DNA of 64,000 nucleotides from Amphiscolops sp. MND2022 (taxonomy: Eukaryota), in contig OZ076411.1 of the NCBI GenBank assembly GCA_964187785.1, forward strand, positions 93,124,001 through 93,188,000, in the 5' to 3' direction. A program made the position numbers and the translations under genes. Below, piece after piece: positions 5,579 through 37,145 of this stretch. The notes below the pieces were generated by a model. It was not told where the DNA came from, made no database searches, and saw only the letters and a program-made list of their open reading frames with translations. Numbering within the stretch: the first letter of the stretch is position 1; the number at the start of each line of letters is the position of its first letter.

Positions 5579-5924
5579 GGGTGGGCGGAAGTAGGTCGAA
5601 GGAACGGGATCGAAAATCAGAGTTAGTCCTCAGGTCGACATACCAAATTTTTGAATGGGATCGAAACAACTCGGATCGAAATTTTTATAACGTAACATAT
5701 GTTCACATACCCCTAGTGCCCTGAATGCAGGAGCGAAGCGAAGCGGAGCGACGAGTCATATGGCCATGCCTCAAAGTTGCTACTTGGCGAAGGGAGCGAA
5801 GCGACCGAGCCATACAACAAATACGATAAAATTCGACCGCATTCCATTCGATCCCTGCAATTCGATCAAAAGGTTCGACCTCTGTCATTTCGACCAGAAA
5901 AATTCGACCTATTTACAGCCACCC
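5579..5924. mobile_element. MITE-like element inserted in the Copia 5' region
   Basis: Terminal inverted repeats gggtgggcggaagtaggtcgaa and ttcgacctatttacagccaccc, with many internal (t)tcga motifs. Confidence 0.6.
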
Positions 5925-6427
5925 AGGGCTTCGGGCAATAAGTTCGATTTACTAAGTTCGAATTTGAACTAGTGCAATAAGTTCGAATGGAATAGTTTCG
6001 AGACACCAAGTTCGAATTTTCAAATCGGGCATATCCGGTGTAAACTGGACATCATTCACACAAGAACCTGAGAGCTCCACCGCCTAGGATCTAAAGGATT
6101 CTGAAAACTGAAATGTGGGGCATACCCGGTGTATGCACGCTCGCCCTCACCGTCGCAAAGACCAGCTCCCACTACGATCGCTTCGCGATCTCCGTTCCCG
6201 CTAGGTCTTTGCTCCTGTTCGACCTCGCTTAGCAAGATGGGAACATAAGCGGCCCCAAGGGGCCGCGGGGCACTAGATGAAAAGGGGAAATATCAGGGGC
6301 ACGTATTATACATAGTCCAAAGTTCGAACACAGTGATTCGCACTTGTTCCGGTTTTTGGAAAAATCGAACTTAGTCCGTTCGAAATTAAAATTCGAACTT
6401 ATGCGTTCGAACTTATTACCGTGCCCC
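5925..6427. mobile_element. Second MITE-like element (or two halves) stacked against the first
   Basis: gggcttcgggcaataagttcga is an imperfect inverted match to ttcgaacttattaccgtgccc; arrays of aagttcgaa occur at both ends. Confidence 0.45.
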
Positions 6428-9400: not shown

Positions 9401-10562
9401 CAACTGACAGTCAGTTTACCACATGGTTCAATGACAAGATGAGTGAGCGGCTTAACATTGGCGAAAGCGGTCCTCCGACCTTCTTCTTGGAAATTTCCTT
9501 CGAGTGGGGAGACAGTTTGCTGACAATGAAGCATCGGAAATATGTGACCCACTTCGCAAACACGGTATGGGCGAGTGCAAGGCAGCTTCAACGCCACTCG
9601 CAGACAAGCTGGAGCTGACGAAGGATCAGATGCCAGAAGACGGATCAGACGAGCAACAAATGTTGAGACATGACTACAGAGGTCTAGTGGGTAGCATTGC
9701 TTTACTCTCACTGTCCACTCGACCTGACTTGGCATTCCCGGCGCACCTACTGTCTCGATTTCTTAGCAACCATGAGTTTGCTCACTGGCAATTCCTCAGA
9801 GGCACATCTGACGTGGGCATCACTTTCATGAAGTGCAATGTGACAGGCCTAAACAGGTACACGGACTCAGACTATGCCAGCTGCAAGGAGGATAGACGAA
9901 GCATCACTGTTTTCTGATTCAATGTAGGAAAAGGGGCAATATATGTAGGAAAAGGAGTAAAAAGTTCATGCCTCGAGCGAAGCCGTAAAGGAAGCGGTGC
10001 ATTCGCGGGGGATTCTGTATACCCTTGGAGAATCAGTAGAGACGACTTTGTTCAGGGACAGTCAATAGTGCTTAGCATTGGCAACCAGAGATGATAACAG
10101 TGCAAAGACGAAACACTTTGCAACTTTGCTGACCTATGTGCGGGAGACAGTAAAGAATCATTCGATTGATATGAGGTTCTCTGCAAGTGGTGACAATTGC
10201 GCTGACATTTTCACGAACGGACCGGGTAGGACGAAGACACAACAACACCTTGCTCAGCTGTCAGCAATGCTGGGGTGCGAAGGTTTGCCATCCACCTCGC
10301 AAGGCGGGAATGATCGAATGGTGAGCCACGACCACTAAGGTTCAAGTACCTGCCAGATGAGATCGCGCACCCAACTTTTGATGCCGCACATTCATGGACC
10401 TGTTTGTGCGATACAACAGTCGACTCTTGATACCGCACAATTTTTGGTTCACTGACGGGTACCTGTCGCGGTGCTATATATACCCGATGCTGAACCACCT
10501 CTACCATCAAATGCAATTGTAAATACATAAACCAAGTCTGATCATAACTAATCAATCTCAAT

Positions 10563-11030
10563 TCAGTTCTCCATGCATACCCAACCTGTTTTAAAATCAC
10601 CTAAAGGACCCTGTACTTCCAAGGCCACCGGTTGAAAAATGTATCCATTGTCTCTTAATTCGTGATTCTTCTCAAGTTTACGCGCTTCAGCCTCGGTGGC
10701 GTTGGTTCCCGGGTTGCAATGGGCGACTTGATTCAGACGAGTGGGTGCAAGAGTGTCCAGAACCGTTACATCCCACACCATTGTTTACCCATTTCTCAAG
10801 GAATCAAGGTAACACCGCGTGGGCGTTTGCCATGAGCTCCGCACAGTCCACGTGGTTCGAGAATTGAAGGCAAGTCGAGAGATCCTAACGTCTGCTTTAT
10901 GAGAGAATTGAGAGTTAGTATGACGTGAGAAGCGACTAGCACACTTGGTGCAAGAAAGACTGTGTAAACCGTCCCGTTCAACTCTTTTACCACAGTGGCA
11001 CGTATGCGCAACACAAATGATAGCTCCGAG
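10563..11030 (-). mobile_element. CRE-clade-like non-LTR retrotransposon fragment (restriction-like endonuclease domain)
   Basis: [38 protein letters not shown] then WDVTVLDTLA...AEARKLEK...FQPVALEVQGPLG, matching the RLE consensus (LEP.GL...GKRPDG.TL.PW...WD.T..D.LA...AE..K..KY...F.P.A.E..G..G). Confidence 0.75.
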
Positions 11031-11929
11031 ACGTGCTAATATGTACGAAACTTGTTTAATTTGAAAAGGTTAGCATATTCGATGTATGGCTTGGTCGCTT
11101 CGATCCCTTCGCCAAGTAATAACATTGAGGCATGGCCAAATGGCACGTCGCTCCGCGTTTGGATTCTAGGGGTAGGTGAACTTAGCTGACTACGTTTTAA
11201 TAACTCCGACAAAAACTGACATGCGTTTGCAGCCTAGTAAACCCAATTCGATTTCATTTTCCAATAAGATTGAAACAAACAATATTCCGCCCCTTGAGAC
11301 CAATTTTTAATTTTCTGCTGCCTAAACTTTCGACTGTTTGGTAATTCCCTCTTCCAACTGCAAAAACAACGAAAACTCTTCCACAACAAGAGAGCGAAAA
11401 AGGAGTACCTTGGTTTCCAAACTTGAGATAATCACAGCAAAAGTTCCATCCATGAGAAAATTGCATAACGTCGTAAAATCAAATTCCACGTATCGTGAAA
11501 TGTATAGTTGTGTTTTAAGGTATCATTTTGGTTCAGACGACATAAATGTATGAAATAAATGTTCTATATGACACTAATTCTATAAATAGAGGTTTCGTTT
11601 CCATAAAATCCTCAATTTACCGTAATCTGTCGAGCAACTTCTGCAACATGCAAAGAATCCGATAACCACAAGAAATCTCTCCTATCCTGTTAGTTCTTAC
11701 TTCCTAACATAAAGGTCTGCTTAGAAGATCCCATTTTTTTCGACACTAGAATAGTTTTGCAGATGAATACCCACTTGTATTTACGAGCATTTGCCCCAAG
11801 AGTTTTCATTCCATCTGTCCTTCAAGTATAGTTTGCTCCAAAATATCGTAAGGTTAAAAATTGAAACCCGTCCTGTTATCTTTTATTTAGCGTCACGAAT
11901 GGAATCAAGCCAAGAATCAACAAAAAAGG

Positions 11930-15119: not shown

Positions 15120-15430
15120 GGTTTTAGAAGAGAAACCTATTGAAATGGACTGAACGCCTGGTCGCTTTTATTCTTAACACCAGCTGTGTCGCAGGCTGCC
15201 GCCTGTGATGGGATCAAGTATACAACCTCCGCATACGACTAAGAGATCGCCCCGGGAACTCTTCCGATCTATTAAAATTGAAACTTTCACCTTGTTAATA
15301 CTATCTAGCTTGTTTTGATCGAACTCAGATTGTTGTCTTTGATAATTCTTTTCAATTTGGATTTAGTATTAGTCTGTTAAATATTACGATGTGAATTATT
15401 CAGATCAAGAATTGGATTTGTTGATTGTAG
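15120..15430 (+). mobile_element. Diverged remnant of the ORF3/3'-LTR junction of a relative of the 17-33 kb element
   Basis: Translates RRETY*NGLNAWSLLFLTPAVSQAAACDGIKYTTSA versus RREAYENGLNAGAFLFITPAVSQAAACDGTLITTSA in ORF 18756-19541. Downstream tattagtctgttaaatattacgat matches the LTR sequence tattagtctgttaaaattacgat. Confidence 0.8.
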
Positions 15431-16916: not shown

Positions 16917-17116
16917 TATGAAAATGTTTTATGAGTTGCATGCTAGGTGAATCCGAGTTAGCGTAGGTGTTCCATGTTTGAATTTTTGTTGAGCCTAGAA
17001 TGCACAAAGGCTTGGTTTTTCTCAATGCATTTTTGGTACACTTTGTGAATGCGAATTCCTAGGTAAAAATCTGCCAAAAATCAAATTAAAGCAAAAATAC
17101 AATCAGCATAACTGCT

Positions 17117-18844
17117 TGTCATGAACATTACGATGTGTTCTATCACCGTGTTCATTATTGAGGATAGTTCTAGTTTTCGCGTTATACTGGACTTCGGAAT
17201 GACTTTCCGGTCTCTCGTCGGATCTCTCCCATCCCCTTCTAGTCTTTTGTCCTGAACCGGCCATAATAACGTTTTGAATTTGTGGCAAAACTTGGTTATT
17301 GATGGCATCACTTATGGCTCTCTGGATTTGAGAACTAACACTGTTCATCATCTCATCCATCTCCCTAGATATTCTAGAGTTTAGTTCACACGATAACTTA
17401 TTGATCTCAGCTTGAGAAGCTATACTCGCTGTGATTCGGTCGTAACCGGCACTAGTCCCAGCTTCGGGATTCCTATGATCAGAATGGAGATTCATTTCCT
17501 CATTTTCTAAGTTATTGCTTGAAACACTTTCCTGCCTTCTAATGGAAGTTCCATCGAGACTTTCGTCTCTCCTCATGTCATTGAAAAGATTTTCACCTAA
17601 CATTATGTCAAGGTTTTCAATGTCAGAGAGAATCTCTAATCCTCTAGATTTCCTTGCTTTCTTTTGCTTTCTTGTAGTAGGCATTAAGACTGAACCGGAT
17701 TGAATACTTGAATTATCAATTCCGAAATGTTAACAGTGAAACCGTTTGTATTATGAACGTCTTTATCAAATGAAGAGAAATACAAAGTATGAGTATTCCT
17801 GCAGGGGTACGGGTATTTATACCCCTAAAGGGATGACACACACATTTTTTACATAGTTTGATCAAGACAAATCATAGGATTTTACAATCATCATAAGAAA
17901 ATCCCCGAGAACTACATATTTCCGGGGGACATTTAAGGAATGGAATCCAGATTCATCATCTTAAGTAGCAACTTCAAACAATTTATCGGTTAGGACCACT
18001 TAATGTGTGATGTAAACAAATACCACAACTTGCATATTTTATAGTAACATCAAACGAAGGCACGTGCCGGCATGAGTTTACTGCGAATTGAGTTGAAAAC
18101 GGAATGCATTACTATGTGTGGAATTCTAATACTGCATTGATATCCACGAGAATACACTCGCATATCAGGGCCGGAATAGGCCCAAATCCATAACATGTAT
18201 TGCACATATGAAGAACATGGTAAAAAGCCTCAGTCGTCCCTTTATCCAAATCAAAAGTATACAAACATCAAAACGTCACAACCGTATTCATTTAGTCTAA
18301 AACATGATTCTAATAGCTCCGCTTAGTACTGATCCAATTATGTAACAAAAGCACCATTAAGCTCGAACTGGCCGGAGCCGTCCATTTGACTGTGGGACTG
18401 ATTTAAATTAGCGCCGCTTAGTCAATTGACCATATCCGGCCATCATGAAAAAAGCACTCATAATTAGCAAAAGGAGAGCTCTGATTGGCTAATAACCGTA
18501 CTGAAAGTTACATCGCCGAGAAGGGACGTTTTCTTACTTGAACACGTTTCCTTCTCGCGATTAACTTGCTAATTGTACGTTACCGCTTTGATTAATTTCA
18601 ACAACTTCCTTTTACAATCTCAATCACAACTTGATTTGGATAGCTCCAAATCGTAATTTTAACAGACTAATATCACGAACAATTATATAAAAATGCACTT
18701 GAATAAATAGAATGAATGGGATTAACTAGTAAATATAAGTTCAGTAAGGGAAAGTTTAAAATGTGGGTAGGGTACCTGGGACGATTTCCTGATTTTCCGC
18801 TGACGTTGTTATTAATGTGCCGTCACAGGCGGCAGCCTGCGACA
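17117..18844 (-). repeat. 3' LTR
   Basis: Matches 31365-33092 at a constant offset of 14248, with roughly 15-17 differences counted by eye (~1%). Confidence 0.93.
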
Positions 18845-19541
18845 CTGCGGGTGTTATGAAGAGGAATGCCCCGGCGTTGAGACCGTTCTCATATGCCTCC
18901 CTTCTAATTTTCGTGATGTACTCGGGCTCTCCTCGCGGCTTGGACCTTGCAACATACCATTCTACTTTCTCTTTCTTTATTGCTTCTGAGGATCTGCCAC
19001 ACACCATACAACCAGAATACAGTTTATTGCTCACGTCTTCGTACGGCCTTGTGTTCTGTACATGAAACGACGCGTGGAAACCACCCAGTGTAGGCTGCAT
19101 TAGGGGGGTGTCCAAACTTGGCCCTCTCTCATGGTCAGGCGGTGACATGGGTGACTCTGGCACTGGTAATAGAGTCTTACAAATCTCTATCCTTGACTTT
19201 CCCAACTTCTTTGGGGGAGCATAACACATCTCCTGGTCAAAGTACCTGTGGTCAAATTTCGGAGTTACATCTGTTTGCGTCTGGGAAGAGCTAGGGCCAG
19301 CTTCTAGTTCGTCTCCTGAGGGTTCCTCCACAGTCATTATGCGGCCCCCGATTAGCATAGGGCTGGAGGTGACTTCCCTTTCGATCCTTGCAATAAGTTG
19401 CTCCGTGTCTGTGGAGCAGTCGGTTTCCCAGTCTGAAGACTCTCCTTCGGTGCTGGAAATGTATATTACTGATCTTTCAGACTCATCTGAGTCGTATTCC
19501 TCCAGATCGAACAATCTTCTAGCTAAGTTGTATTTGCTCAT
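18756..19541 (-). CDS. Sense accessory ORF3 (261 aa, intact): acidic N-terminus, CxxC motif, unknown function
   Basis: Intact ORF with ATG and stop, D/E/S-rich first half and GCMVCG motif. No signal peptide or TM segment, so it is not env. The C-terminus is conserved in the relative at ~15.1 kb. Confidence 0.75.
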   Translation of the reverse strand: MSKYNLARRLFDLEEYDSDESERSVIYISSTEGESSDWETDCSTDTEQLIARIEREVTSSPMLIGGRIMTVEEPSGDELEAGPSSSQTQTDVTPKFDHRYFDQEMCYAPPKKLGKSRIEICKTLLPVPESPMSPPDHERGPSLDTPLMQPTLGGFHASFHVQNTRPYEDVSNKLYSGCMVCGRSSEAIKKEKVEWYVARSKPRGEPEYITKIRREAYENGLNAGAFLFITPAVSQAAACDGTLITTSAENQEIVPGTLPTF

Positions 19542-20612
19542 GATTATCTTTTTTGCTATTTTTGAAGCTGCTCGCAGTGACTGTATTGAAGAGAAGTTTG
19601 TAGTAGAATGAATTTGTCAGTTTCAAGAATTTAGCCGAATCAGGCCTTTTCCCGAACTTTCCAGTTCGGCGGGAGAACCTTCGGCGGGTTGATCATCCCG
19701 ATCCGTCGTAAACTTTTCTGAATGGAATTCCTTAATTGGTCGGCTCCCTTTGATAACCTGATGTTTACCCCTCATCAGTGTCATCACTAGAAGAGGTGTG
19801 AATGACTCTCGACTTATGAATATCAACTACACCGTCTCAAGTGGGTAATTAACGGGTCGCTTGTAAGCAATTAGCGGCACGCGCCACCAAAATTTCTCGT
19901 AATGGTTTCATCCAATCAGCGTTAAGCTCCAATAAATTGTAAAATTAAATAATAAAAATGGCGAAAATAATAAATCTAAATAATCCAAGATGGCGAAAAT
20001 TCTAACTAAGGGTAATTAGGGTAACTGGATGTAACGACAAAACAAAACAGAAAAAACGGCCATAACCGGTCTCTAACTAAGTAAACTGTAAGCAACAAAG
20101 TTCTTTGTACACTTCACTGGCAGACTCCATGTACAGAATAAATATGTAAATAATCAAATAATATTAGTCTGGTAACTTCCTTCAGCCACGAACTCCAACT
20201 TTCCAACTTCTTCAATTCTTTTATTCAATTTTAATTCCATTTACTCCCGATCATCTTACATTTGTCTCTTCATCCATATCCTTTTAATTGTCATCAGTCT
20301 ATTTACATCACTGTCTCTCTTGTCCCTAACGACTCTCCGTCTCGCGTAATCTGTGGGTCTCCCCCGTCTGTCAGGATTGGCACAACTCCGCGGTTCCGAC
20401 CAGCTGGATCAAGACTCTTTACGTTGGGATAGCAGTATTGGAGAGGACATGTCATCAAATACAGGTTGGTCTGGTTTCAACATATTGAACTAGTTTAGCT
20501 TGATCAAGGCTAGACTTCATTCATACAGCGCTTCCTTTTTCCACTAATAGACTCGTGATAACACGTTTTGTTCAACTCTGAAACACTTCCGGAAGATTTC
20601 TAACGCGGTAAA

Positions 20613-23600
20613 ATGGATTCTTTTCGAGGAAGCATACCGCCAAGTTTTATCTCTTTTCGTTTAGAGAACCAAACAACCGAAGTTGCTAATGTACCAGCCG
20701 ACCTTCCTAACAATGCTCCAACAGTCAATTCCCCAACTGATCAGAGTGGGCAAGTCCAGAACCCGGCCTCATCCCAAGAAACGCTTCGTAGTCGGGCAGA
20801 TGACGTCACCTCCACACACAGTACTGAAAGTGACCCTGATGTCACTACATACGCGGAAAATATGGTGCGTCAGCTAGAAGGGGCACAAGAACTTGATCGA
20901 CCTAGGGAGAAACAAAACAAACGGAGCCACCTCGGGACATCGCTCCTGGTACACAATTAGATTCCCCTGCCTCACCTGCTACAGAGACCAGAAGAGCTAG
21001 CACGCCGCTCTCAGTCAATGAGGGAGAAACCCCGAATGCTGATCTGTCTGCTCTAGAGTCCGCTCTCCGAGTGGTAGAGACGTCGGATTCACAATTGGCT
21101 GAGCTAGTAAATGTTGATCTCCCAGACAAAAACACGAGCGGCGATCCGCCTGAACAACAGGACACTGAAGTAGCATCCTCTGTTGGAGATGCCCCCCTCT
21201 CCCTGGAGGAGAATTTAAGGTTCGGTACCTGACTGACCCTAGTGGAGACGAAGGCCTAACAGATCAATCTGGCATATTTGTCCCAGTAGCCTTATACGGT
21301 CGCCATCCCTTCTCTCACACCTCTGAACCTGAAGAAGGAGACGATACCAGATCTGAACCTCTTGTTCCCGGTACTAGTGGGCAGACACCCGGGCAATGCG
21401 CAATCCAGAAAGAGCCTCCACACCTTTCCGGAAGAAGTCGAGCGATCCTCAAAGAGTATTTCGACGAATCACCCTCCACTCGATTCCCAGTAGGACAAAC
21501 CACTGTTACCTTTACTGAACCGCAAATGTACCACCTTCTTAGAGTCCTTACTGATGAGACCCTCGGGAAATCCTTTTCGGCCATGGAGCGCATGGTCATT
21601 GATGCAGTCCGAGGTAAGCCAACTGTTGCCCCGTCCAGAACTGCGCACTTTTATTCAGGCAAGCGCGCTCTAACCCCAGGACCTGGTAGTGTTGGAGATT
21701 CTAGCGGAAGTGATACAGAAGAAGATACTACACTAAGGGGTAAAAACTCAGAGCCGTCCAGTTCTGGAGAGACAGGCGATTCTTCATACTGACTGCGGGG
21801 AGACTGACAGTGCTACCGAAATGGACTTGATTACCAAGTCCTTTAAAAAACCCACTAGTGCCCAAGATGTCCCGGATCCTCAGTTGTCGAGCCAGGAGGC
21901 CCAAAGAGACACTGATACTGACACGCCGAATTACAGTAGTCAAGATGCCACACTGCTTGAGGTCAGAGATCAAGTTCTGGGCGCTACCACTGCCAGCTCG
22001 TCCAAGCCCAGGAAGAAGAAAGGCAACAAAAGCCTTTCTAAACGAGGCGTCCCCATGCGAGAGGAATTCTTTTCCAAAATCGGATGGACGAGATCCTTCA
22101 TATCTGGCCCTGCTGACCCACTCCATAACCCTCATATGGTTTGGTGTCACATCTGCAAGAAAAACTTTTCAATCAAATCTAAAGGTCCCTACGAGATACT
22201 CAGACACCACCGGACGGAGCCAACTTGCGGCGGGACCAACGCTGGCGCTATGTACACTTGCGGAGTACCGACCCAATTACTGGAAAGACGCAGCACCGAG
22301 TCCGGGGTGGCAATGGGAAGCTTTTGACTAAAGTTGAACTAGCCAAAGAATTGCCCAAATTCAAGAACGTAGAGCTTGTAGATATAGGAGAGCGATTCCT
22401 TTTTTATAACGATTTCATCAAGGGATCCACAACGGCCTTGGTTACTCCGGAAGCCCGCATCAAGACCCAACTTTGTTTGGTCGGAGACTTCATCAGGACT
22501 CAAGGTGATTTGATGGTCCTACGCAATTTATGGTCCCGAATGGGGTCATTCACCAATCATCAAGCCACCTTCAACGACTTTGATTGGGGAGAAGAGAGGT
22601 TGTCGGTTAGTGCCATTTACTTTAGTTGTTTTAGCCCGAATCCAGTCAAAGGTTTAGGGAGAGTTTTGTTTCTAGACAATCTTCCAGCACTTCTTCATCT
22701 GTTGCCTTGACGACATATCAGAACAGGTCAACTCTCAACAGTGCTTTGCCCTTGAGTTTGAAGTAGTTGGAGTGTACAAGCACATGTCTGTCAAGTTCTG
22801 GAAAGGCTCCGAACTTTGTAGGGTGTTTATTTGCCGCAGCTCTCGAGTTACTACTGACGTGACCGGGGAACTGGGGTCCCTTTCCCGGTTCCTTTCCGCT
22901 GTGTCTACCAAACCCGGAATAGTTGCCTGTTCCGGATGTCACTCGGACCTACCCAGAGCCATCGACGAATCAGAGTATTATAACCAGGGCGTTCAAAGTT
23001 GTCTGCGTTTTGAGCACTTCTCACTACCACGACTCATGCACAAGACCAGCTACAGTGTCTTCGGGAAGATTGCTTTCTTCTCCGTCCTACAATCCTTGAT
23101 GGTTTCCTTGGGCGGATCTCTTATGGAAGACTGGGTGATTCGTAGCCCTGAACTCACTAAAGTAAGTAGTTTCTACATGGAATTTCTACTGGGGGAACAA
23201 GGTCTAGGTAGGACGTTTCATTTGTCCAGCGTGTTTATTTGGATCGATTGCTATTTCCAGGCTATAACCAGTTGTAAGCTTGATGTGACAACGCTACCTG
23301 TCCTCTGTCGTGAACTTATGGCCGAATGGAAGTCCGTGGTCCGGTACCTCACCACCCATGCTCCTCTACAAGAAGGATCAGGATCTAGAGGAAGGGTTAG
23401 ATTTTCCTCATTTCCCACTTGAACCCATAGGAATTCGAGTTGGCCTTTTCCACTAGGTTGATCCAAGGTCTACTTTCAATAGTTGGATTGATGTCGGTCT
23501 GTTCCAGGTGCAAAGTTTTGACTGGTCACTAATATGTGATGAGTTCTTCACCGTCAAGCTGGAGTTCTTCAGTAAGATTGTCAGTGATTGTTAGTATAGT

Positions 23601-24821
23601 TTGTTATAGACCCGGTGGTAGTAAGTTATCCTGAACCGGACATTAGTTCTGTTTTCAGTCGTGACCAGTTTCTCAGTGAGCCTGCAGTACCGCCGTGATT
23701 CGTCTTTCTATCTATGCGGGGAGGTCAGCCATTTCCTCAGCCTGCTTTGCTCTCGGATCTATACCCCGGACACTGCCCCTGTAGCTAATGCCTGGTTTAT
23801 CCTCCTCCGTTTTCAGACAAGTGAGGGCACTTTCCTACCCGGAGACGAGTACCTGGTCCGGCTGAAAATGACCAACAAGGTGTCGTCGGCCAGCAAGGCA
23901 AGGGCCGAAGGTATCCATTTCGGCCAGAAGACTGAACGGGCTGCCAACTTGGCTACCGCTGAGACAGTCAAAGCTGATTTCGTCAAAGACAGTCAACAGT
24001 ACATCCAGTTCTTGATTGATGGAGTTCTCCAGCGGACCGGGCTCAGCACCAATCTCGTGAAAGGACTAGCAGCTTTCGACCCCTACATCATGCTAAAGAG
24101 GCCAATGGATGTGGCTTTGCGGCACTTTGACGTGCTTTACAATACCTTCGCGCTACGATCCTGGGTCGATGATTCAAACGAATCTCTATGTCGGGACCAA
24201 TATATTCAGTTATTGGATCATCTCCGTACTGCTTATGGTTCCAGCTTTGATATTACTAGTGTGGCAGCTGATCTGATCGAGTTCCTGATGGGGCTCGAAT
24301 TTCTCCACGAGCGTTCTCATCTTTTGTACCTTTTTAAGTTAAGTTGTTTGTGTACAACTGTTACCAGTCCCAGTTATTCAGATGTCGTTTTTGGAGATGT
24401 CACTACTGCCGGAGGGCAAAATCGATTTACTGACTTGGTTTTACCTTGTCAGAGTTACATGGCTAATGTTGCTGGTTCCGTCATTCGAAGCAGTGAAGAT
24501 TCCAACCTCGCTAAGTTTACTGCTCTCGCTGCATCTTTTGGACGCGCTGCCTTCTCGCCAGAATACGACCCCTGGACTTACACAGACACTTTTGGCCGGT
24601 CAAAAATATATAAGTCCCTCTTAGCCACCCATCGTAAGGCCGATACAGCTCCGAAGAGGGTCTCAGTGCAAAGTGATTTGGCGGGAACTAGTACTGAGTG
24701 CGACCAATCCGCTGTGAGGTTCCCTAGCAGTAAAAGGCGAAAGAGGGGTGGGAGCAGTTCACGGTCATCCACGTCTTCTGTTGCTGGGAGTCCCAGTAAA
24801 GACTCCACCACTAAGTCTTGA
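20613..24821 (+). pseudogene. Antisense accessory gene: BED zinc finger plus hAT-transposase-like body, with introns; decayed in this copy
   Basis: ORF segments 20613-20960, ~20906-21200, ~21200-22215, 22225-22605, 22676-23395 and 23661-24821 join via three frameshifts, one stop (21790) and GT-AG introns (22606-22675 restores the frame exactly). Contains WCHICKKNFSIKSKGPYEILRHHRTE.H. Confidence 0.75.
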
Positions 24822-25033: not shown

Positions 25034-28000
25034 TTAGTATCTGAAGTCTTCTGAGTAGTTTGGGTTAGGGTTAGGCCTGAGGTTATATTTCCCTCCTCTA
25101 GGGCTCAGACTTTCATTTCTAGCATCGTTTTCAGATGTTTCGGGCACGATAATATCATCCCCCCTTTTCGGAGAATTTTGTGCATCGATTTCAGTTCTAA
25201 AATTTTCATCGGGTAAAATTTCTTTGTCTTTTAGGCTGTCTGCCGTATCCGGCAAAGATTTTTCATGGCTTTTTGGGGAAATGGCCGGATTCGGCCAATC
25301 AGGTTCTTCATTTCTAGACTGTTCACTAGCTTCATTTCTTGTAGTGACGTCATCAATTAACCGTTCATTCCGGCTATGCGACGCACGATCGGCAAGATTT
25401 GATTCATCACTCGTGATTACATAATCCACTTCATTCTCGTGTGCGTCACTTGTATTCGGTTGTGCCGCATTCGGTTGTTCGCCATTCGGCACGTTAGTCG
25501 GAATAGGCTCGTTGTCTCGTGTAACTAGCTGCTCGCCAAAATCTGTTTCCCACGCTATGACGTATAGGTCATCTTGCGGAAAGACAATTTCTTCGTCTGG
25601 CTGCAGACGTTGTTCTCGGAAATTATCCTCAAGCGGTTGATTGGGGACGAACTTCTTAAGGCGAATGCGATGCAAAATTTGAGTTTTGTTCGTATTGATC
25701 CGTCGTACTATATAGTTTTCATTTGGCAAAACTTTTTGGACTACAAATGGTCCAACCCAACGGTAATCGCGGAAGGGATTTTTTGATCCCTGATGATCCG
25801 CTTTCGGCTGTAAGACGAAACAGTAATCATTCTCCTTCAATGGAGCAGCTTTTGCTTTGCGGTCGTAATATTCTTTGTACTTGATATACGACTGCATAAT
25901 GTTCTGCTTCGTTTTGTCAATTAGGATTTTTGTCCGGTTTTGGATTTCTTCAGCAAATTCGGTTGTGGGGTTGATCTGCTCATTTGGATTATTTCCAAGT
26001 TTGTGATCCAAGATATTAAATGGAATTCTTCCATGGAATACTGTCGTCGGTTCACAACCGATGCTGGCGTGATAACTAGTATTATGATTCAGTACTGCTA
26101 ATGGCAAGTATTTGTGCCACTGTCGGCGATATTCCCCACATGCCATTTTGAGATTTGTTTTCAATGATGCATGAGTTCGCTCCAATTTCCCAATTGTCTG
26201 CGGGTGTTTTGTCGTTGCACATTTGAGTGTGATGCCCAAAATCTGCGTAACCTCCGCAATAATTGTAGAAGTAAATGCAGTACCTTTATCAGTGATAAGA
26301 GTCGTTGGTAGATATGAGTGTTTAGTCATGATGTCAATGAGCGCTTTTGCTACATTGATTGCTGATGTGTCCGTAAGTGGATAGGCGAACAAATATCTGG
26401 AGAATACATCAATTGCTGTTAAGACGTTTTCATACCCAGCACTTGGGGGAAGATTCGGCAATAGGTCTATTTGCATGGCGTCTTCAAGTCCGAGGTCCCA
26501 TTCAGGCAAGTTGAGCAGCTCAGGTGTGATCGTTGCGTTAGGGACTCTTTTGTCTCTGGCACATTGTTCGCACCCTTCTTCCCACTTTTTGACGTGATTA
26601 GCCATGCTAGGGTAGTAATACCTCTGTCGAATTTCCTGCAGCATTTTTGAAATCCCAGGATGTTTATGCGCTGTCCCGTGAAGGGATTGGAGCAATTCCT
26701 GGAGTAAATGTTGCGGGAGTAGAATTTGATGGTATTTAACATTCCCTGTTTCATCGAAATATTGCCTTGTCAGGATTTCGTCCTTTAGTACAATTCGTTC
26801 CAGATTGTTTGTGTAATGTCTATATCGGGCATCCTGGTGTAGTAGATTTTCTGAATACTCTTCATGAAGCAGTTTTGCTTTCAATTGTTGTAGTACCGCA
26901 TCCTTGGATTGCTCGATAATGATCTGGTTCGTTCTCCTCAATCGGACTTGTATATCGGGGTGTTGCTTGACCAGATTTGTTGACAGAGTTTGTATAGTAA
27001 CAATGGGCTCATCAGTTGATGGATTTTTCCTAATTGCTTCTTTTCTTGCCCAATACTGTTCCTCTGTCTCATCGTCGTCATTGGTGTAGAAGATTTGTTC
27101 TTCTTGCGACACACCTGCGGATTGGACGTTGATTTCGATTGGTAGTGTTTGTACATCTTCACGAATTTTCATCACCAATTTGTCCTTTGGATCTGCTTCC
27201 AATCGGGACAAATAGTCGGCGGCTGTATTTTGTGCCCCTGGGATGTGTGCTATGACAAAATTGAACTGAATGACATAATCACACGCGTTCCACAGGGCTG
27301 GGGGTATTATTTTCGTTTGGAAAAATCTCGTGACAGCTTTGTTGTCCGTAAGGATGATGACCGGTTTCGGCGCACCCCAGAAGATATGTCCGAATTCTTT
27401 AAATGCAAAATAAATTGCAAGGAATTCCTTGGCATAAATTGACATCTTGATCTGTGCTGGGGTGAAAGTTTTTGATCCATATGCGACCGGTGCATACGAT
27501 TTTCTGAGTGATGTAAATTTCTGACTTGGGTCGTCTTCAATTAGGACCGCGTACCCGGCTGCACCAAAACTTGCATCAGTCATTAGTGCTATTTGTTTGT
27601 TCGGAATGGGTTGTTGTAGGGCCAAGTCGCAACATTTGTCTAGTGCTCTATTGATTTCTTCGAATTTTTGGACTAATTCTTTCGATACTAGGACCTTTTC
27701 GTCACTTTTGAGCATCTTGTAGAATGGAGCAAGGCGTTCGGAGAGTCTTGGGACATAATTCCTGTAATAGTTTAGGAATCCCAAATAGCGCTGTAAAGCC
27801 TTTTTCGACTATGGGAATTTGGTCTTTTCCAGAAAGTTTTGCACGTTCTGTTTCTGGGGTTTGACGCCTTGTGGGGTAATAGTCCGTCCGAGAAAATCAA
27901 TTTCTTTTGCACCGAAGTGACATTTGTGCATTGTCAACTTAAGGCCTGCTTCCTGAATGCATTTGAACGTGGCTCTCAGGTTCGTCATGAGGTGGTCGAC

Positions 28001-30241
28001 ATCATTGGCTGCGATGCCGATATCGTCCACATACTGGGCACACTGATCCGCTTTAATGACTTTGTCAAGGTATTCTCTCATGAAACTTGAGAATGCGGAT
28101 TGTGACCGACTAAGGCCTTGTGCCAAGCGTCTGTAAGCGAATGTGCGACTGGCAAAATTGAAAGCCAACATTTCGATGGAGCGTTGGTCGGCCATTGGTA
28201 GGCAGTGGTATGCCTGCGAACAGTCTAATTTACAGAACAGTTTTTTGCCTGCCAAGTGTTGGGCGGCATCAACTAGTGTACTGACGGGATGATTGTTGTT
28301 GATATAATCATCCGAGATGAGGTTGTTGATTTTTCTCAAGTCAACCAAGAGTCGGAGTTTCCCGTTCGGTTTGTTCTGTGCAAATATTGGACTCGCATAT
28401 TTCGAGAACGGTAGGGTGGTGATGATGCCATGTTTGTGTAACATGGCTAATTCGACTAGGATGTCCTCCTTCAAATTGATAGGAGCTGGAAGGCTTTGAC
28501 TATAGGCTGGGGAATCGTCCTTAGGTGTCAGTTTCACTTTGAATTCCTCGTTCATGCCTATATCAAATCGGTGTCGTGCAAAGATGTCATGGAATTCCAC
28601 TAACAATTCCTCAATTTTCTCCTTCTGTTCAGGAGTAAGGGTGGAATCTTTCCAGTCGAAGTTTTCTAAGAATTTTGCACGTGATTCTGCATCTGTGGTG
28701 GGGTCGAGTGTCTCCAGGTCCTGTAAGGCCTGTAACTCGCATAGGATTCGTTTTTGTCTAGGTGTGTGTTCCTCAGGATTTCCAGGGTTTTCTGGTGTTG
28801 GGAACCAATAATTTTCGGAGTTTTGTGGATTTCTATTGGTTTTGATGAGACTGCTGACATAATGGGCTGCTTGCTCCTGGTCATTCTGCAAAAGGTGCCA
28901 GGTTGATGCCGGATCTACCGGTTTGACATACTTCATCTGTTCTGGCGTCATGACAAAGAAATTGGCAATATGTAGTCCCTTTTTGAGTCAATAAGGGTGG
29001 TCTGTGAAATTGCTCACTGGTATCAATATATTGCCGTCATTCAGAGTGACCAAGGCTGGGCAGAATGTGATGTCGCCTTCTTCATGTAGAAGGTCGCTCG
29101 GTTGCAAAATCCCAGTGACAGCATTTTCAGGGTATAGTAGGGAATTAGTCCGGATTAGGACTCTGTCATTTGGCGGAATGGTTATTTCAGCAGGGTTGAG
29201 GATTGGTTCAAGTACGTTTGAGTACTTATGGTCAGCTGTTTTGAGCTGCATTGAAAAGAACTGGAAATTCAAAATTCCTTGTCTCATGTCCAGTACTGTA
29301 TGATTTCGTTGAAGGAACATTAGTCCAATGATCGGTCCCGTTAGATTCTCCATTACTATGAAGATTTCATGAAACTCAATGTCACCAACCTCAAATTTGA
29401 GCTCTATGGTACTCTTGGGAGTTTCTAATTGGCCATTTGCGACCATTATTTGAAAATTCGGAGGCGGACCTTCCCGGATAACTGATTGTGGTGATAGAAG
29501 TCGGATTTTCCGGAGGTCCATTTCAGGGATTGCACTGGAAAGTGCTCCATTGTCAATTAGGCCGTCTATGGTTAATTCTCCGAAGTCCATCGGGAAATAC
29601 AGCATTCTCTTCTTGCATTTGAGGTTGATACTGGTCGAAAGTGGTATACAGTCTGGTTCACCCTCTTTGGTAATGAGGATATTTTGGAATTGTTTCTCGT
29701 CCAATAGTGATTGTGGAATTGGTTCTGTACTGGCTTCGTTAGTTTCGGTTCCCAAAGGGTTCGGGAATACTGGATGGTTAGTACCATCATTCATTTGCCA
29801 GTTTTCGATTAGTGCTCTGGTTTTCTTGTTATGGGTTATCGGAGGGTTTTCGTGGACTGTGGTTTGGTAATGGGCTATATCATTCAGGACGTATTGGAAT
29901 TGTAGGAGGTCCTGGTTGTAAATCTCAATGTCTCAATAGGGATCTCTGCCATAATCTGGATCGATGTATGTTGGATTGTAATCATCGATCAGTGGAATGG
30001 GCCTGAACCGGGTGGTGAAGGTAGTGGTGTGATCAGGGTCCCAAATAGGAATTGGTTTCTGGAACAAATGGGTGTTATTGTAAGTGATGATGGTGGCTTT
30101 TCCCATCTGCTGCTGCCAGACAACAGAGGGATAGCCCATCAATTGTTGATTGTATTGGTGGAAAGTTTTTGTTGGAGGGTCCGATCTGATGTATTGTCGG
30201 ACAGATATTAATTCGTTATATTGGAGTCGTGGCGAAGTTAG
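25034..30241 (-). pseudogene. pol: Pol polyprotein (PR-RT-RNase H-IN) with three in-frame stops
   Basis: One reading frame broken by stops at 29933, 28988 and 27809. Protease GLIDNGA (catalytic DTG changed to DNG); RT LRLLVDLR, YVDDIG; RNase H TDAS, KEFLA, LTDNKA, ADYLSR; integrase HHCC, IDLL, TDKG, LER. Confidence 0.95.
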
Positions 30242-31932
30242 TTTTTTGACTCATCATTAGAATATGAGGATTGGGAGCCCGATGATGTCGGTTTGGTCTG
30301 AGGTTTCTGAGCCTTGGGATTGGGCTTGTTGTCAGTTGAGTCCTCAGGTCTAGTGCGTTTGGGTTTAAGATGTGCACCAGCACCTTGCCAACATCTCTCC
30401 TCCGGGTGGTTCTTTTTCCCACAAGTGCCACATTCCGGATATGTTTTCTTCTGCGTCGACTTGCCTTGTTGGGCATCTTTTTCTTTTTTCTTTTTGAGTT
30501 TTTCGCAGTCCTTTACCATGTGACCCTTTTCCTTGCAATAATTGCAAGTGATATCGGACAGTTGCCCTGTGGACAGAGGGGTTTTAGTTTTCGTAGTCGA
30601 GGAGGTCATTGTTGCCATCGGTAGGTCATCTGACTCCTCGAGGGCGTTAAGCTCTAATTCTCTCTCCAAATGAGCAACTATCTCATCGTAGGAGCCATTT
30701 TCTAATCTGGCCATGTTGACGGACCGCTTCAGTTTTGGTGGCAGTTTTGCGTAAAGCAAGCTGTCAATCATTTTCTGCGCATGATCACCAAACGCCTTCT
30801 CGGCTTCTTGGTTTAATTCTTCGAGAAAGTCAGGCAGTTTCATCGTGTTGGGATCGAAGACCAGACGGTGCCATTTATGTTTGGCAGTCGCCTGTGACTC
30901 GGGCTTGACGTATTTCCGTCTAAAGATGACTAATACGTCCTCTAGAGTTTGTCGGTTGCTTGAGCTGATATTTCTGAACGTCTGGAGATCATTCTTCCTC
31001 AATAAAGAGTGGAAGTGATTGATCTTCATTTGCTCAGTCATTTCTGGCTGCATCTTGATCATAGTGTGAAATAGGTCTTCGAACAGTTCGAATTTCTCAC
31101 TTTTGCCATCGAATGTCATGGTATTTGAGTTGACTGGGCGTATGGTGAGTTTTTGGGCTGTCGGTCTATTTTGCATTGTAGTCAAGACGTCTGCCAGTCG
31201 GGTGATGGGGTCGGAGTCAGCAGCCGTAGCGATTCTCTCTTGTGCTGGGATCGTCGTGTCGAGGTTGATGTCCTCGAAGGACCTGTCGAGATGATTTCTG
31301 GATGAGAGTCGTCCTGTGAGAAACTCAGGAACTTGATTTGGAGATTCGTTGTCTCCTGTCACCATGTCATGAACATTACGATGTGTTCTATCACCGTGTT
31401 CATTATTGAGGATAGTTCTAGTTTTCGCGTTATACTGGACTTCGGAATGACTTTCCGGTCTCTCGTCGGATCTCTCCCATCCCCTTCTAGTCTCTTGTCC
31501 TGAACCGGCCATAATAACGTTTTGAATTTGTGGCAAAACTTGGTTATTGATGGCATCACTTATGGCTCTCTGGATTTGAGAACTAACACTGTTCATCATC
31601 TCATCCATCTCCCTAGATATTCTAGAGTTTAGTTCACACGATAACTTATTGATCTCAGCTTGAGAATCTATACTCGCTGTGATTCGGTCGTAACCGGCAC
31701 TAGTCCCAGTTTCGGGATTCCTATGATCAGAATGGAGATTCATTTCCTCATTTTCTAAGTTATTGCTTGTAACACTTTCCTGCCTTCTAATGGAAGTTCC
31801 ATCGAGACTTTCGTCTCTCCTCATGTCATTGAAGTGATTTTCACCTAACATTATGTCAAGGTTTTCAATGTCAGAGAGAATCTCTAATCCTCTAGATTTC
31901 CTTGCTTTCTTTTGCTTTCTTGTAGTAGGCAT
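30238..31932 (-). CDS. gag: Gag (564 aa, intact ORF)
   Basis: Retrotransposon gag core (FDGKSEKFELFEDLF...KINHFHSLL...FRRKY) and two CCHC knuckles (CNYCKEKGHMVKDC; CGTCGKKNHPEERC). Confidence 0.92.
   Translation of the reverse strand: MPTTRKQKKARKSRGLEILSDIENLDIMLGENHFNDMRRDESLDGTSIRRQESVTSNNLENEEMNLHSDHRNPETGTSAGYDRITASIDSQAEINKLSCELNSRISREMDEMMNSVSSQIQRAISDAINNQVLPQIQNVIMAGSGQETRRGWERSDERPESHSEVQYNAKTRTILNNEHGDRTHRNVHDMVTGDNESPNQVPEFLTGRLSSRNHLDRSFEDINLDTTIPAQERIATAADSDPITRLADVLTTMQNRPTAQKLTIRPVNSNTMTFDGKSEKFELFEDLFHTMIKMQPEMTEQMKINHFHSLLRKNDLQTFRNISSSNRQTLEDVLVIFRRKYVKPESQATAKHKWHRLVFDPNTMKLPDFLEELNQEAEKAFGDHAQKMIDSLLYAKLPPKLKRSVNMARLENGSYDEIVAHLERELELNALEESDDLPMATMTSSTTKTKTPLSTGQLSDITCNYCKEKGHMVKDCEKLKKKKEKDAQQGKSTQKKTYPECGTCGKKNHPEERCWQGAGAHLKPKRTRPEDSTDNKPNPKAQKPQTKPTSSGSQSSYSNDESKN
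30241..30247 (-). promoter_or_regulatory. -1 ribosomal frameshift slippery heptamer A AAA AAC
   Basis: TCA AAA AAC TAA at the gag stop. The -1 frame is open (KLTSPRLQYNEL...) and is the same frame as protease, RT and integrase. Confidence 0.75.
31353..31364 (-). promoter_or_regulatory. Primer-binding site (probably tRNA-Leu type)
   Basis: TGGTGACAGGAG abuts the LTR end. Its complement CTCCTGTCACCA is one mismatch from the 3' end of typical animal tRNA-Leu(CAG), CTCCTGACACCA. Confidence 0.75.
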
Positions 31933-33092
31933 TAAGACTGAACCGGATTGAATACTTGAATTATCAATTCCGAAATGTTAACAGTGAAACCGTTTGTATT
32001 ATGAACGTCTTTATCAAATGAAGAGAAATACAAAGTATGAGTATTCCTGCAGGGGTACGGGTATTTATACCCCTAAAGGGATGAAACACACATTTTTTAC
32101 ATAGTTTGATCAAGACAAATCATAGGATTTTACAATCATCATAAGAAAATCCCCGACAACTACATATTTCCGGGGACATTTAAGGAATGGAATCCAGATT
32201 CATCATCTTAAGTAGCAACTTCAAACAATTTATCGGTTAGGACCACTTAATGGGTGATGTAAACAAATACCACAACTTGCATATTTTATAGTAACATCAA
32301 ACGAAGGCACGTGCCGGCATGAGTTTACTGCGAATTGAGTTGAAAACGGAATGCATTACTATGTGTGGAATTCTAATACTGCATTGATATCCACGAGAAT
32401 ACACTCGCATATCAGGGCCGGAGTAGGCCCAAATCCATAACATGTATTGCACATATGAAGAACATGGTAAAAAGCCTCAGTCGTCCCTTTATCCAAATCA
32501 AAAGTATACAAACATCAAAACGTCACAACCGTATTCATTTAGTCTAAAACATGATTCTAATAGCTCCGCGTAAGTACTGATCCAATTATGTAACAAAAGC
32601 ACCATTAAGCTCGAACTGGCCGGAGCCGTCCATTTGACTGTGGGACTGATTTAAATTAGCGCCGCTTAGTCAATTGACCATATCCGGCCATCATGAATAA
32701 AGCACTCATAATTAGCAAAAGGAGAGCTCTGATTGGCTAATAACCGTACTGAAAGTTACATCGCCGAGAAGGGACGTTTTCTTACTTGAACACGTTTCCT
32801 TCTCGCGATTAACTTGCTTATTGTACGTTACCGCTTTGATTAATTTCAACAACTTCCTTTTACAATCTCAATCACAACTTGATTTGGATAGCGCCAAATC
32901 GTAATTTTAACAGACTAATATCACGAACAATTATATAAAAATGCACTTGAATAAATAGAATGAATGGGATTAACTAGTAAATATAAGTTCAGTAAGGGAA
33001 AGTTTAAAATGTGGGTAGGGTACCTGGGACGATTTCCTGATTTTCCGCTGACGTTGTTATTAATGTGCCGTCACAGGCGGCAGCCTGCGACA
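31365..33092 (-). repeat. 5' LTR
   Basis: Second copy of the 1728-bp repeat; on the minus strand it begins TGTCGCAGG and ends GTTCATGACA. Confidence 0.93.
32062..32069 (-). promoter_or_regulatory. Candidate LTR TATA box (TATAAATA)
   Basis: TATAAATA on the minus strand ~130 nt upstream of the gag ATG (31932), inside an AGGGGTA/TACCCCT inverted repeat. The same motif is present in the 3' LTR. Confidence 0.5.
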
Positions 33093-34540
33093 CTGCTCAC
33101 AGGGAAATCTGACATTTCTTCCTGAAAAATTATCCAAATTTTTCCATCCAAAAGAATCGAAACGTTAGAGTTTCCAATTTTTCATCTTTTTAGAAAAGTT
33201 TTGATCACGGTGAAAGTTCATGGAATTCGTCAACTAGATAGTTTGCTTCTTGACATATACTTTCTAAATGAAATGAAGTTGTTGTATAAAAAGAGGGCTT
33301 AGAAAGTGTGAAAAAATGATAAAAAAACTTATATATTAAAATAAATGCTAGTACTTCTTAGTTTCAAAGCTTCGTATTAACTTGTTGCAACGAATATCCA
33401 CAGAGTTTGAAGACAAAACATGTAGACTTTTTCCTGATGAAACAATGATGTTCTTCTGTAGAACTCAAGCTGAGCCAAAAATCGTGAGAGCTTTGAATGT
33501 TTTCATTGCAATAAGACCATTAGCCATGCCAAAAATCTCCAAAAAGGTTGTACTGGATGAACTGAGAGTCAGAAGATGTCCACTGCTCCGCTGGCTTGTC
33601 GCTGGTAGATGGAGCCAGTGATGAGAATGCCTTATGTTACTTCTCAGCATATCTGTTCAAACATTGGCTCTTTTCTGTTCAAACCCCCAGCATCAAAATT
33701 TTTCCAAAGTAAAATTCTTCAAAAAGTTCAGACTAGCCTAATTAAATAAAAAACCTTTTCTTAACCGGAAGTTAATGTCTGTGAGAATAGTTTTTCCTTT
33801 GAAGAAAACATTTTTCACACATTTAATTACGTTCCTTATTCACTGTTTTTGTCACACAAAACAGGAAGTTGTTGATTTCTTTATCAAGAATGCGTGACTT
33901 GATACGCAAAAATAGTGTGAAAAAAGTTTGTCTCAAATGTCAAAAGTGAAGGTTTCTGGTTTGTATTCAAGTCTTTTTTTAATAATATTTCCACTATATT
34001 TTCGTAAAAATTTGGTGGTGGGGGGAACAGAAAAGAGCCCAAACATCAATCTCATGTTAGTAATATAGGCACAGGTTGTAAAATCTTTTCTATTCTGTCC
34101 TTCTAGTGAGCTTCAAATGTGGAGAAAACGCTAAGCACAGAGACAAAAAGAGTCTCACGGCATTATTGAAGTGCGAGAAAAGAGACTAATTGTCAGTTTT
34201 GTACTTGTCACTGAGTGAGATAAAGAAATCATTTTATAAATTCAACTGCCATCGAGAGCCTCTCAACAATTCAGTCAAATTAACTCATTTACTTCTCAAT
34301 TCTTTGCAGTTTGCAAGTCAACCCAAAAAGTCTACAGTATTCAAGGTGAAGAATAGTTTTATTGAGGAAGCGAGCTTCATAACATTGAATCAATGGAGTG
34401 GACAAAAATCATGGAGGTCAAGTAAAATCGATATCAATTGAATTCTAGGTAAAGAATTGTGTTTATAATGAAGCGAGCTTTATAACATTTTTCCTATAAA
34501 ATTTTGCTTGTCGTATTTGAAGATTGTGACCAGGCGGCAG

Positions 34541-35394
34541 TCATTCTGTAGCTTTTCCGAACAAGCGTCGCAGGAAAGTTTTCAGAGACTGACGAGTTAC
34601 GGGAGACATGAGAAGAATGAGGCTATTGACAATGCCGTTGAACGATGTAGTGAGTTGACCCAACAGAACGACCACTTCAAACACTTTGTACCAGTACCAG
34701 TCTGGAACAGCACCAGATGCATTGAATTGAGAGAATGAGTAAAATTGCAAACCGTATTTCAAGCAATACCACGACCCCACAAACATCACGAAGGACAAGG
34801 ACAGTAGAAGCATCACCCCAGAGAGCTTGCGATCGTTTTTGGCTGCTGCTGCTGCTGCTGTGGACGTGCGAGTATCTTTGTTCTCTTGAGCCTCCCCAGC
34901 TGTTTTCTGACGTCCCATCACGTTTCCCTGAGACTGCAGCTTCTTCTTTTTCGCGAAATAGCGTCTCAGGAAAGCCACTGCTGATATGCTGTTGAGTACA
35001 ACAACTAGGATTACCGGACAAACACTGTACAAGAAAATGTTGACCAGAAACCCATAAACGTTCAAATAGGGAATTAAATCTGGATCTGACCAGTAGCACT
35101 TGTAGGCATTGTTCATGTCCTCTTCCAGACAATGAATATCGGGGTCTTTTTTTTGCCAAAATAACAACAAAGGCGAAGCAAGTATGAACACCAGTACAGT
35201 GAAAATAAATAAAGGTCTCTTCGCTCTATCTTTTCCTCCATTCACCCGATACCAGTTAGGTTTCATGATGGCCAAATAACGATCCAGCGATAACCAGACA
35301 TAAGCCCAGGAAGAACACGCTTCAAAAGATGTCAAAAGCCATTGTAGGCTTCCACACACCCATCCACTCGCAGGAAGTTTTATCAGATTAGCCA
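34541..35394 (-). CDS. Class A (rhodopsin-like) GPCR, exon covering TM3 to the C-terminus
   Basis: C...S...SSW..V.LSLDRYLAI..P (DRY motif), followed by TM4-TM7 hydrophobic segments and FNGIVNSLILLM. A polypyrimidine acceptor (ttttattttgttccag) precedes 35394; TM1-2 must be on an upstream exon not identified. Confidence 0.85.
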
Positions 35395-36379: not shown

Positions 36380-37145
36380 TTTGGCGAGTATTTCCGAGTC
36401 ATTTTCCGAGTAAACCTACCAATTACAGTTTAGCGAGTAAAACCGCCTAAAAAGCCTGTATTTCTGAGAAATAGCCTGTACAACCAAGCAATAACCCATA
36501 TTTCTGAGAAATTGCTTTAATATATTGCTGATTTCAGACGCGCGTATGGCAGTGCGTAAAAATGAGCGAAGAAAGTGACTTATCTCATAACTCAATTCTT
36601 GAGTCAGGTTTACACGAAAACCAAGTGACAACGGTACCTCCAGTTACACCGAAATGCGAGAGTCAGTTCAACGAAATGCGTCGAGAGGGGCCAAGAGACA
36701 GCATTTGTCGACCATGACAGCTGCAGAAACGGCCAGAATGCTGGGAAACGAGGACTTTTACGCAGAGGCAGCCAAATTATTCTGCAAATTTTGCAAGAAA
36801 GCAGTCGATCATCGCAGCCAAAGTGTTGTAAACAGACACCTGATCTCCGATAAACATACGAAAAATAAGAAGGATCCCAATCGGAATCCCGCAAAAACCA
36901 TAACCACGGCATCCAAAGTATCCAACGCAGCGCGGTTGCAAAATATTCGACTAGTATCAAAATGGGTCCCAAGTTGCGCTGCCTCTAACATACCACCTAA
37001 TGCCGCCTCGGACAACATCACAATGCGCAATGTTTCTGTATGTCAACGCCGAAATTTTTTTAAATTTTTGTTGTTAATTTCGTTTTTTTTCCGAGTCATT
37101 TACCGAGTAATCCACCCACATTCGAGCCTGTACCGAGTCGAGTAA
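36380..37145 (+). mobile_element. CGGBP1-like zinc-finger hAT remnant
   Basis: ORF 36654-37145 KLFCKFCKKAVDHRSQSVVNRHLISDKH...SNIP...DN matches the CGGBP/hAT N-terminal finger pattern. Clusters of ccgagt subterminal repeats occur at both ends. Confidence 0.65.

Follow-up and report, generated by a model that had tools for sequence, protein, structure and literature searches.

How far can a gag gene reach into the long terminal repeat (LTR) of the retrotransposon that carries it, and is the part inside the LTR real coding sequence? The question is raised by an element on the minus strand of a 64,000-nt stretch of DNA from Amphiscolops sp. MND2022 (GenBank assembly GCA_964187785.1, contig OZ076411.1, positions 93,124,001 to 93,188,000; hereafter the window, whose first letter is position 1), in which the gag open reading frame (ORF) begins in the 5' LTR and continues through the LTR end and the primer-binding site (PBS). 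From the comparison of sequences and predicted structures we are confident that this is a Ty3/gypsy-type element in which the 5' third of gag, lying in R/U5, is a real, conserved and very probably translated part of the gene.

Anatomy of the element

The element measures 15,976 bp between its outer LTR ends (Table 1). Self-comparison of the window returned a single long direct repeat (17117-18844 and 31365-33092), corresponding to the two LTRs; 14 substitutions and two one-base indels, 16 differences in all, distinguish these copies. Five codons differ between the LTR copies, all non-synonymously; these differences fit decay after insertion. On the minus strand GCAG precedes both LTRs (18845-18848 and 33093-33096), as part of the target-site duplication (TSD) at one and as internal sequence at the other, and this is probably chance. 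There is also an 88-nt inverted match (76%) between 15124-15211, 2 kb outside the element, and 18820-18907, the junction of ORF3 and the 3' LTR, which is possibly a fragment of an older relative. Rfam gave no match within the window.

Table 1. Features of the element (window coordinates; residue numbers refer to Gag)
Feature	Position	Strand	Remarks
5' LTR	31365..33092	-	1,728 bp, TGTC...GACA ends
3' LTR	17117..18844	-	1,728 bp, TGTC...GACA ends, 99% identical to 5' LTR
TSD AGCAG, 5' side	33093..33097	-	
TSD AGCAG, 3' side	17112..17116	-	
TATA box candidate TATAAAT	32063..32069	-	motif match
Initiator candidate TCATACT	32034..32040	-	predicted start at A 32038, 31 nt after TATA
Variant poly(A)-signal candidates	31995..32015	-	GATAAA (32015), AATACA (32000)
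gag ORF, 564 aa	30238..31932	-	ATG at 31932
LTR-coded part of gag, codons 1-189 plus one base	31365..31932	-	conserved block 1-35, variable linker, amphipathic helix about 82-142, variable linker
PBS TGGTGACAGGAG	31353..31364	-	read as M190-V-T-G
Capsid-like helices of Gag			residues about 282-432
CCHC knuckle of Gag			residues 462-476
Slippery-type heptamer A AAA AAC	30241..30247	-	gag end; pol in -1 frame
pol (PR, RT, RNase H, IN with GPF motif)	25034..30250	-	one frame
ORF3, 261 aa	18756..19541	-	no Pfam match; last 28 codons inside 3' LTR
gag N-terminal ORF copy in 3' LTR, 193 aa	17103..17684	-	stops 4 codons into flank

The 564-aa protein is Gag: the zf-CCHC Pfam match (E = 0.003), the Atlas matches with Retrotrans_gag/Ty3_capsid (0.93) and the Foldseek matches of its model (mean pLDDT 45.6) to retroviral capsid C-terminal domains (probability up to 0.99, E = 0.27 or worse) are weak but concordant. 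The heptamer at the end of gag is presumably a -1 frameshift site. Pfam matches in pol follow the order aspartyl protease (below the cut-off), RVT_1, RT_RNaseH, Integrase_H2C2 and rve, and this copy has three in-frame stops, near 29934, 28989 and 27810. The integrase carries the GPF motif (WVGPFVV at residue 686 of the last pol segment), and a GPF/Y motif is called a Ty3/gypsy hallmark in an excerpt of PMC12440569. When the reverse transcriptase (RT) was compared by phmmer with proteins of solved structure, foamy-virus RT ranked best (E = 2e-19) and Ty3 RT lower (E = 9e-11); the RT region (27809-28987, minus strand) has a YVDD motif.

The PBS begins with TGG directly after the LTR. Its primer may be tRNA-Leu, and the window contains no tRNA gene. 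Self-priming of the Tf1 type was ruled out, since no complement to the PBS of at least 7 nt is present within the LTR. A polypurine tract beside the 3' LTR is a common trait of LTR elements, and not a marker of any clade; none adjoins the 3' LTR here, where the preceding bases are ...CATAACACCCGCAG and the nearest purine run of at least 7 starts at 18905, about 50 nt off.

ORF3 has 192 relatives at E <= 0.001. The residues PAV/SQAAACDG across the 3' LTR start (18844; marked by the slash) are almost invariant in 45 ORF3 variants (out of 73 near-full-length ones), and most of these 45 end about 28 codons inside the 3' LTR. Because these 28 codons are conserved, the proposal of the initial annotation that both LTR ends are protein-coding, one through gag and the other through ORF3, holds at the sequence level.

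About 4 kb within the element (20604-24821) are filled by antisense ORFs on the plus strand (up to 398 aa), one of which has a CxxC...HH zinc-finger-like motif; no Pfam match was found at E 0.1 in the five of these ORFs that were scanned. This run could be cargo of the family or a nested insertion.

The gag frame crosses the LTR end and the PBS

The gag ATG is at LTR position 1161, that is, 568 nt (189 codons plus one base) inside the 5' LTR, an overlap that makes up one third of Gag and of the LTR. The LTR and ORF coordinates thus agree exactly with the initial annotation, which had gag starting 568 nt inside the 5' LTR and reading through the LTR end and the PBS, and so does the junction sequence: GAC ATG GTG ACA GGA covers the LTR-terminal GACA and the following TGGTGACAGGAG, and is read as D189-M190-V-T-G. 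An open frame of this length is not expected by chance: the 567-nt LTR-coded stretch was open in the gag frame in 0 out of 5,000 dinucleotide shuffles, and its remaining five frames hold 6-30 stops each. The copy of the gag frame in the 3' LTR is likewise stop-free up to the LTR end.

The layout in two Gag lineages

A protein search yielded 2,173 relatives out of 8,000 scored candidates. Among the best 120, which were listed, 105 share the N-terminus of this lineage (lineage A): 93 start with exactly MPTTRKQKK and 12 are one-residue variants of it. A second lineage (B), reached via a distant match, shares about 55% identity with lineage A across Gag as a whole and 89% within the capsid region; of the 120 members listed for it, 97 start with exactly MPSTRRQKAK. 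M1 is invariant in 49 out of 49 aligned Gags, and gag clusters have up to 168 members.

The junction is shared as well. Among 361 Gags of at least 500 aa, 318 have the junction motif as DMVTG (182), YMVTG (117) or HMVTG (19); the rest comprise 32 proteins without the anchor motif and 11 variants. The alternation of D, Y and H follows from the ACA end of the LTR, which requires NAC codons, and MVTG from the shared TGGTGACAGG-type PBS. The LTR-coded part varies in length and always stays in frame: among the 315 Gags starting with MP, 301 have the junction motif, and their LTR-coded lengths are 181 codons (29 Gags), 182 (1), 183 (105), 189 (39), 195 (117) and 197 (10).

We mapped LTR ends from protein data alone, using the fact that an ORF in a 3' or solo LTR matches Gag to the LTR end and then runs into unrelated flank. 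The last base of the LTR is an A in the first position of a codon, so the first foreign residue must have an A-starting codon. The test covered the listed members of ten lineage-A clusters (140 members) and nine lineage-B clusters (126 members). In lineage A, 103 members continue past the junction, 28 diverge there, five end before it and four start after it; in lineage B, 82 continue, 26 start after the junction and 18 were scored as diverging, one of which (P0570) was dropped as misclassified since it keeps MVTG, leaving 17. All 45 diverging ORFs (two of which may represent one insertion) split right after D, H or Y, and the next residue (T, I, N, S, R, K or M) fits an A-starting codon in every case, for which the expectation is 0.44 for each random sense codon. 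These 45 short ORFs we read, from their sequences, as 3' or solo LTRs. Four shorter and more distant matches (P0386, P0408, P0278 and P0340) likewise reach a Y close to residue 190, and the residue after it is N, N, R or K. Two sequences outside the counted set break the phase rule with residues not encoded by A-starting codons: P0424 (H then Y) and P0294 (D then H). P0424 is a predicted ORF in which the LTR-coded part of Gag is fused in frame to RNase H-integrase.

As judged from these predicted proteins, the gag-in-LTR layout is a family trait across two lineages. Families with a broken LTR frame would be under-sampled, because all relatives are predicted ORFs. A metagenome scan for DNA of the relatives gave one unrelated zinc-knuckle locus among 90 pattern matches, and no such DNA was found in the viral and genome collections searched.

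Protein-level constraint on the LTR-coded part

Conservation within the LTR-coded part is concentrated in two blocks. Between lineages A and B, identity is 61% at residues 1-35 and 46% at residues 93-142, and drops to 14% and 13% in the two linkers (compared to 49% and 51% in the non-capsid parts of Gag outside the LTR). In the structural model, residues 82-142 form one long helix that is among the best-predicted parts of the protein, and residues 143-242, including the junction, are unstructured. Within 93-142, the hydrophobic or polar class is kept at 24 out of 28 differing positions (Fisher p = 5e-4); the linkers show no association of this kind (p about 0.7). When each of seven sequences was compared with 1,000 shuffles, its helical hydrophobic moment was the greater in 984-1,000 of the comparisons. 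The hydrophobic pattern of the helix thus survives substitution and points to selection on the protein, so far as sequences can tell. The share of conservative substitutions at residues 1-35 is 0.62, compared to 0.35-0.38 under single-step neutral change.

We considered whether the conserved blocks might act in the LTR as DNA or RNA signals (for promoter function, packaging or strand transfer), with the open frame as a by-product. The share of conservative substitutions at residues 93-142 (0.42), which is not above the single-step neutral range (0.39-0.44), would agree with such a reading; however, it does not account for the retained hydrophobic class at the changed positions, for the helical periodicity in both lineages, or for length changes that keep a frame that none of the shuffles kept open, and the PBS junction region has no unusual RNA structure (z = -0.46). 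We therefore hold signals of this kind to be a highly improbable explanation compared with selection on the protein. The RNA fold at the start of the 3' LTR is not significant either (z = -1.38).

The initial annotation had asked whether the LTR-coded frame is frequently disrupted. Frame breaks were counted in 210 members of 15 clusters, a crude and biased count with overlapping categories: 95 are full length and 39 end within 12 residues of the junction; inside the LTR part 30 start and five end, and beyond the junction 13 start and 47 end. Some of the internal starts may be choices of the gene caller, and a protein database favours open frames. Read with these limits, breaks per codon (about 0.18 in the LTR part and 0.13-0.16 elsewhere in gag) occur at roughly the same rate throughout, so that the LTR frame does not show the frequent disruption named in the initial annotation; the rates are compatible with post-insertion decay along the whole gene.

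Transcription start and start codon

Three TATA-type motifs occur in the LTR, each of them upstream of the gag ATG, and two are followed by an initiator (Inr) match 30-31 nt on. One of these two, at 32290, is followed by nine ATGs; the other predicts a start at 32038, from which the gag ATG, 106 nt on, is the first ATG. A TATA/Inr pair is found in 118 out of 2,000 shuffles, and a pair with a clean leader in nine out of 2,000 (the latter criterion was set after seeing the sequence). By its motifs, 32038 is the candidate transcription start. A start site downstream of 31932, which the initial annotation had raised as a possibility, is unsupported, as no TATA-type motif is present downstream of the ATG in the LTR. 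Neither AATAAA nor ATTAAA occurs on the LTR sense strand; the variant signals at 32015 and 32000 would give a short R and a U5 of about 600 nt, and a variant at 31404 would give a long R.

Could Gag instead start at M190, whose codon joins the LTR-terminal A to the TG of the PBS, or at some internal methionine, with the upstream frame as an untranslated leftover? M190 is invariant in 49 out of 49 aligned Gags, its context is strong (GAC ATG G, compared to the weak TTA ATG C of M1, by the vertebrate-type consensus), and a few cluster members (P0620, P0628 and P0635) are called from MVTG. Its invariance, however, follows from the ACA end and the TGG of the PBS. Moreover, 16 ATGs (M1 included) are present in the LTR from the candidate start site to M190, and an untranslated frame would not preserve M1, block 1-35 and the helix pattern across lineages whose linkers are 13-14% identical. 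Taken together, we regard a start at M190 or an internal methionine as improbable, and translation from M1 as the preferred reading. The claim of the initial annotation, that Gag is truly encoded by the 189 LTR codons, by the attachment end and by the PBS, is accordingly supported by the start and junction shared in two lineages, and also by the protein-type conservation of the helix and the TATA/Inr pair upstream of the ATG.

Proposed mechanism and origin

With Gag starting at M1, RNA would start in the 5' LTR near 32038 and its first AUG, 106 nt on, would be that of M1; ribosomes would then read on across the rest of the LTR with its terminal ACA, and across the PBS, and so produce the 564-aa Gag, and pol would be reached by a -1 shift. 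A tRNA would prime at the PBS, which is about 674 nt downstream of where the RNA begins, and minus-strand strong-stop DNA would copy the whole Gag N-terminal coding region and carry it to the 3' end. An open frame in both LTRs and in solo LTRs would be expected because strong-stop DNA copies this region. In LTR replication U5 is always templated from the 5' copy, and here the 5' copy would be the translated one, so the 3' copy could be open without selection of its own. The cis-signals would fix few codons: NAC A/TG GTN ACN GGN (the slash marks the LTR end) gives D/H/Y-M-V-T-G, and the model places these codons between the helix and the capsid region, in a linker that is modelled with low confidence and is probably disordered; Gag may tolerate them there.

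As for the origin of the layout, the likeliest course is that the LTR end and the PBS shifted downstream into the Gag linker. The other course we considered is that gag grew an N-terminal extension via an upstream ATG in a formerly non-coding LTR. This would agree with residues 1-189 having no Pfam match (and residues 1-200 no Atlas look-alike above 0.76), and with their faster evolution: in lineage A, divergence is 0.37 in the LTR-coded part, compared to 0.08 in the rest of Gag. However, the ordered amphipathic helix before the capsid and the basic M-x-x-T-R start found here seem similar to the N-termini of ordinary gypsy Gags. No relative with the N-terminal domain outside the LTR, or with an LTR lacking the domain, was found among the relatives obtained. 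An N-terminal extension seems to us the less likely origin, though a credible one, and a shift of the LTR end and PBS is the origin we favour.

A further idea, which we consider unlikely, is that 3' and solo LTRs are complete minigenes, each with a promoter, a first AUG and 189 stop-free codons, that make a capsid-less Gag helix domain. If true, the fragment could limit copy number as a built-in brake on the assembly of particles, and through the open end the Gag N-terminal domain could become fused to sequence downstream of an insertion. P0419 is one such predicted ORF, in which the LTR-coded part of Gag is fused in frame to the Gag of another element (Retrotrans_gag at 807-879). A two-copy fold of residues 78-150 scored 0.02.

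Relation to known elements

Ty3/gypsy elements (Metaviridae) have in common with this one TG...CA LTRs, a short TSD (4-6 bp in the family, 5 bp here), a putative tRNA-type PBS, a Gag with capsid-like and CCHC regions, the order PR-RT-RH-IN and the GPF motif. Their gag usually begins after the PBS, whereas here it begins before the PBS, inside the LTR. In foamy viruses and HIV, accessory ORFs overlap the U3 of the 3' LTR (bet and nef, respectively, end inside it), as ORF3 does here; but those overlaps are at the U3 end, and the gag overlap described here lies at the R/U5 end and extends over the PBS.

The closest known layout is that of Ty1 from Saccharomyces cerevisiae, whose GAG start codon is 40 bp upstream of the LTR end (excerpt of PMC10512236), in line with the overlap of about a dozen codons given in the initial annotation, and whose 5' UTR has 53 nt before GAG (excerpt of PMC7969010). 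The LTR end and the PBS of Ty1 are therefore translated too, and the kind of layout is already known; the 568-nt overlap is an extreme form of it. Ty1/copia elements (Pseudoviridae) are similar in having the GAG start inside the 5' LTR; the element described here differs from Ty1 in its 568-nt overlap containing a predicted helix, its gypsy domain order, its 1.7-kb LTRs, its conserved ORF3 entering the 3' LTR and the lack of a polypurine run next to the 3' LTR. Membership in Ty1/copia was rejected, as the integrase is not before the RT; the gag-in-LTR layout is all that is common to Ty1.

Two other groups were also rejected. Troyka elements have CG...CG termini and a 3-bp TSD (excerpt of PMC12440569), and are ruled out by the TGTC...GACA ends and the 5-bp TSD. 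The Odin/lokiretrovirus group has a dual RNase H, made of a tether and a new RH (excerpt of PMC9040795); here there is one RNase H region (46-167), with no second Pfam match before IN at E 0.1, at the sensitivity that Pfam has.

A phrase search of open-access full texts, whose reach does not include older element descriptions, returned no published gag/LTR overlap near 568 nt. A large gag-in-LTR overlap is not described in the excerpts of PMC6844567, PMC8634392, PMC8504770, PMC12440569 and PMC10512236, nor a gag-in-LTR overlap in those of PMC4402516 (Tor elements) and PMC2774666.

The layout suggests that the LTR/gag border can move: R/U5 has room for a whole Gag domain, and the integrase end and the PBS take up five codons of a linker. 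From this layout one would also expect the strong-stop DNA to be unusually long (about 670 nt) and each LTR copy of a high-copy clade to carry a promoter together with an open frame. For annotation, restricting gag to the region between the LTRs would lose one third of these proteins, and ORFs in the LTRs would be miscalled as orphan host genes; the junction-residue test locates LTR ends using protein data alone.

Other features in the window

Outside the element, region 38000-61000 has a C-over-G skew of -0.27 to -0.57 over 23 kb and holds long duplications spaced 6.3 kb and 7.5 kb, with a unit of about 318 nt. In region 5512-11156, the ORF at 7265-7927 matches a copia-type Pol beta-barrel (PF22936, E = 1e-8), and is flanked by 67-nt direct repeats (5512 and 10280) and 87-nt inverted repeats (5743 and 11070). 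Two weak Pfam matches below the cut-off that would suggest an animal host, 7tm_1 (E = 8e-5; 34541-35266, minus strand) and zf-U1/AKAP95 (E = 7e-4; 36654-37145, plus strand), are possibly exons of host genes.
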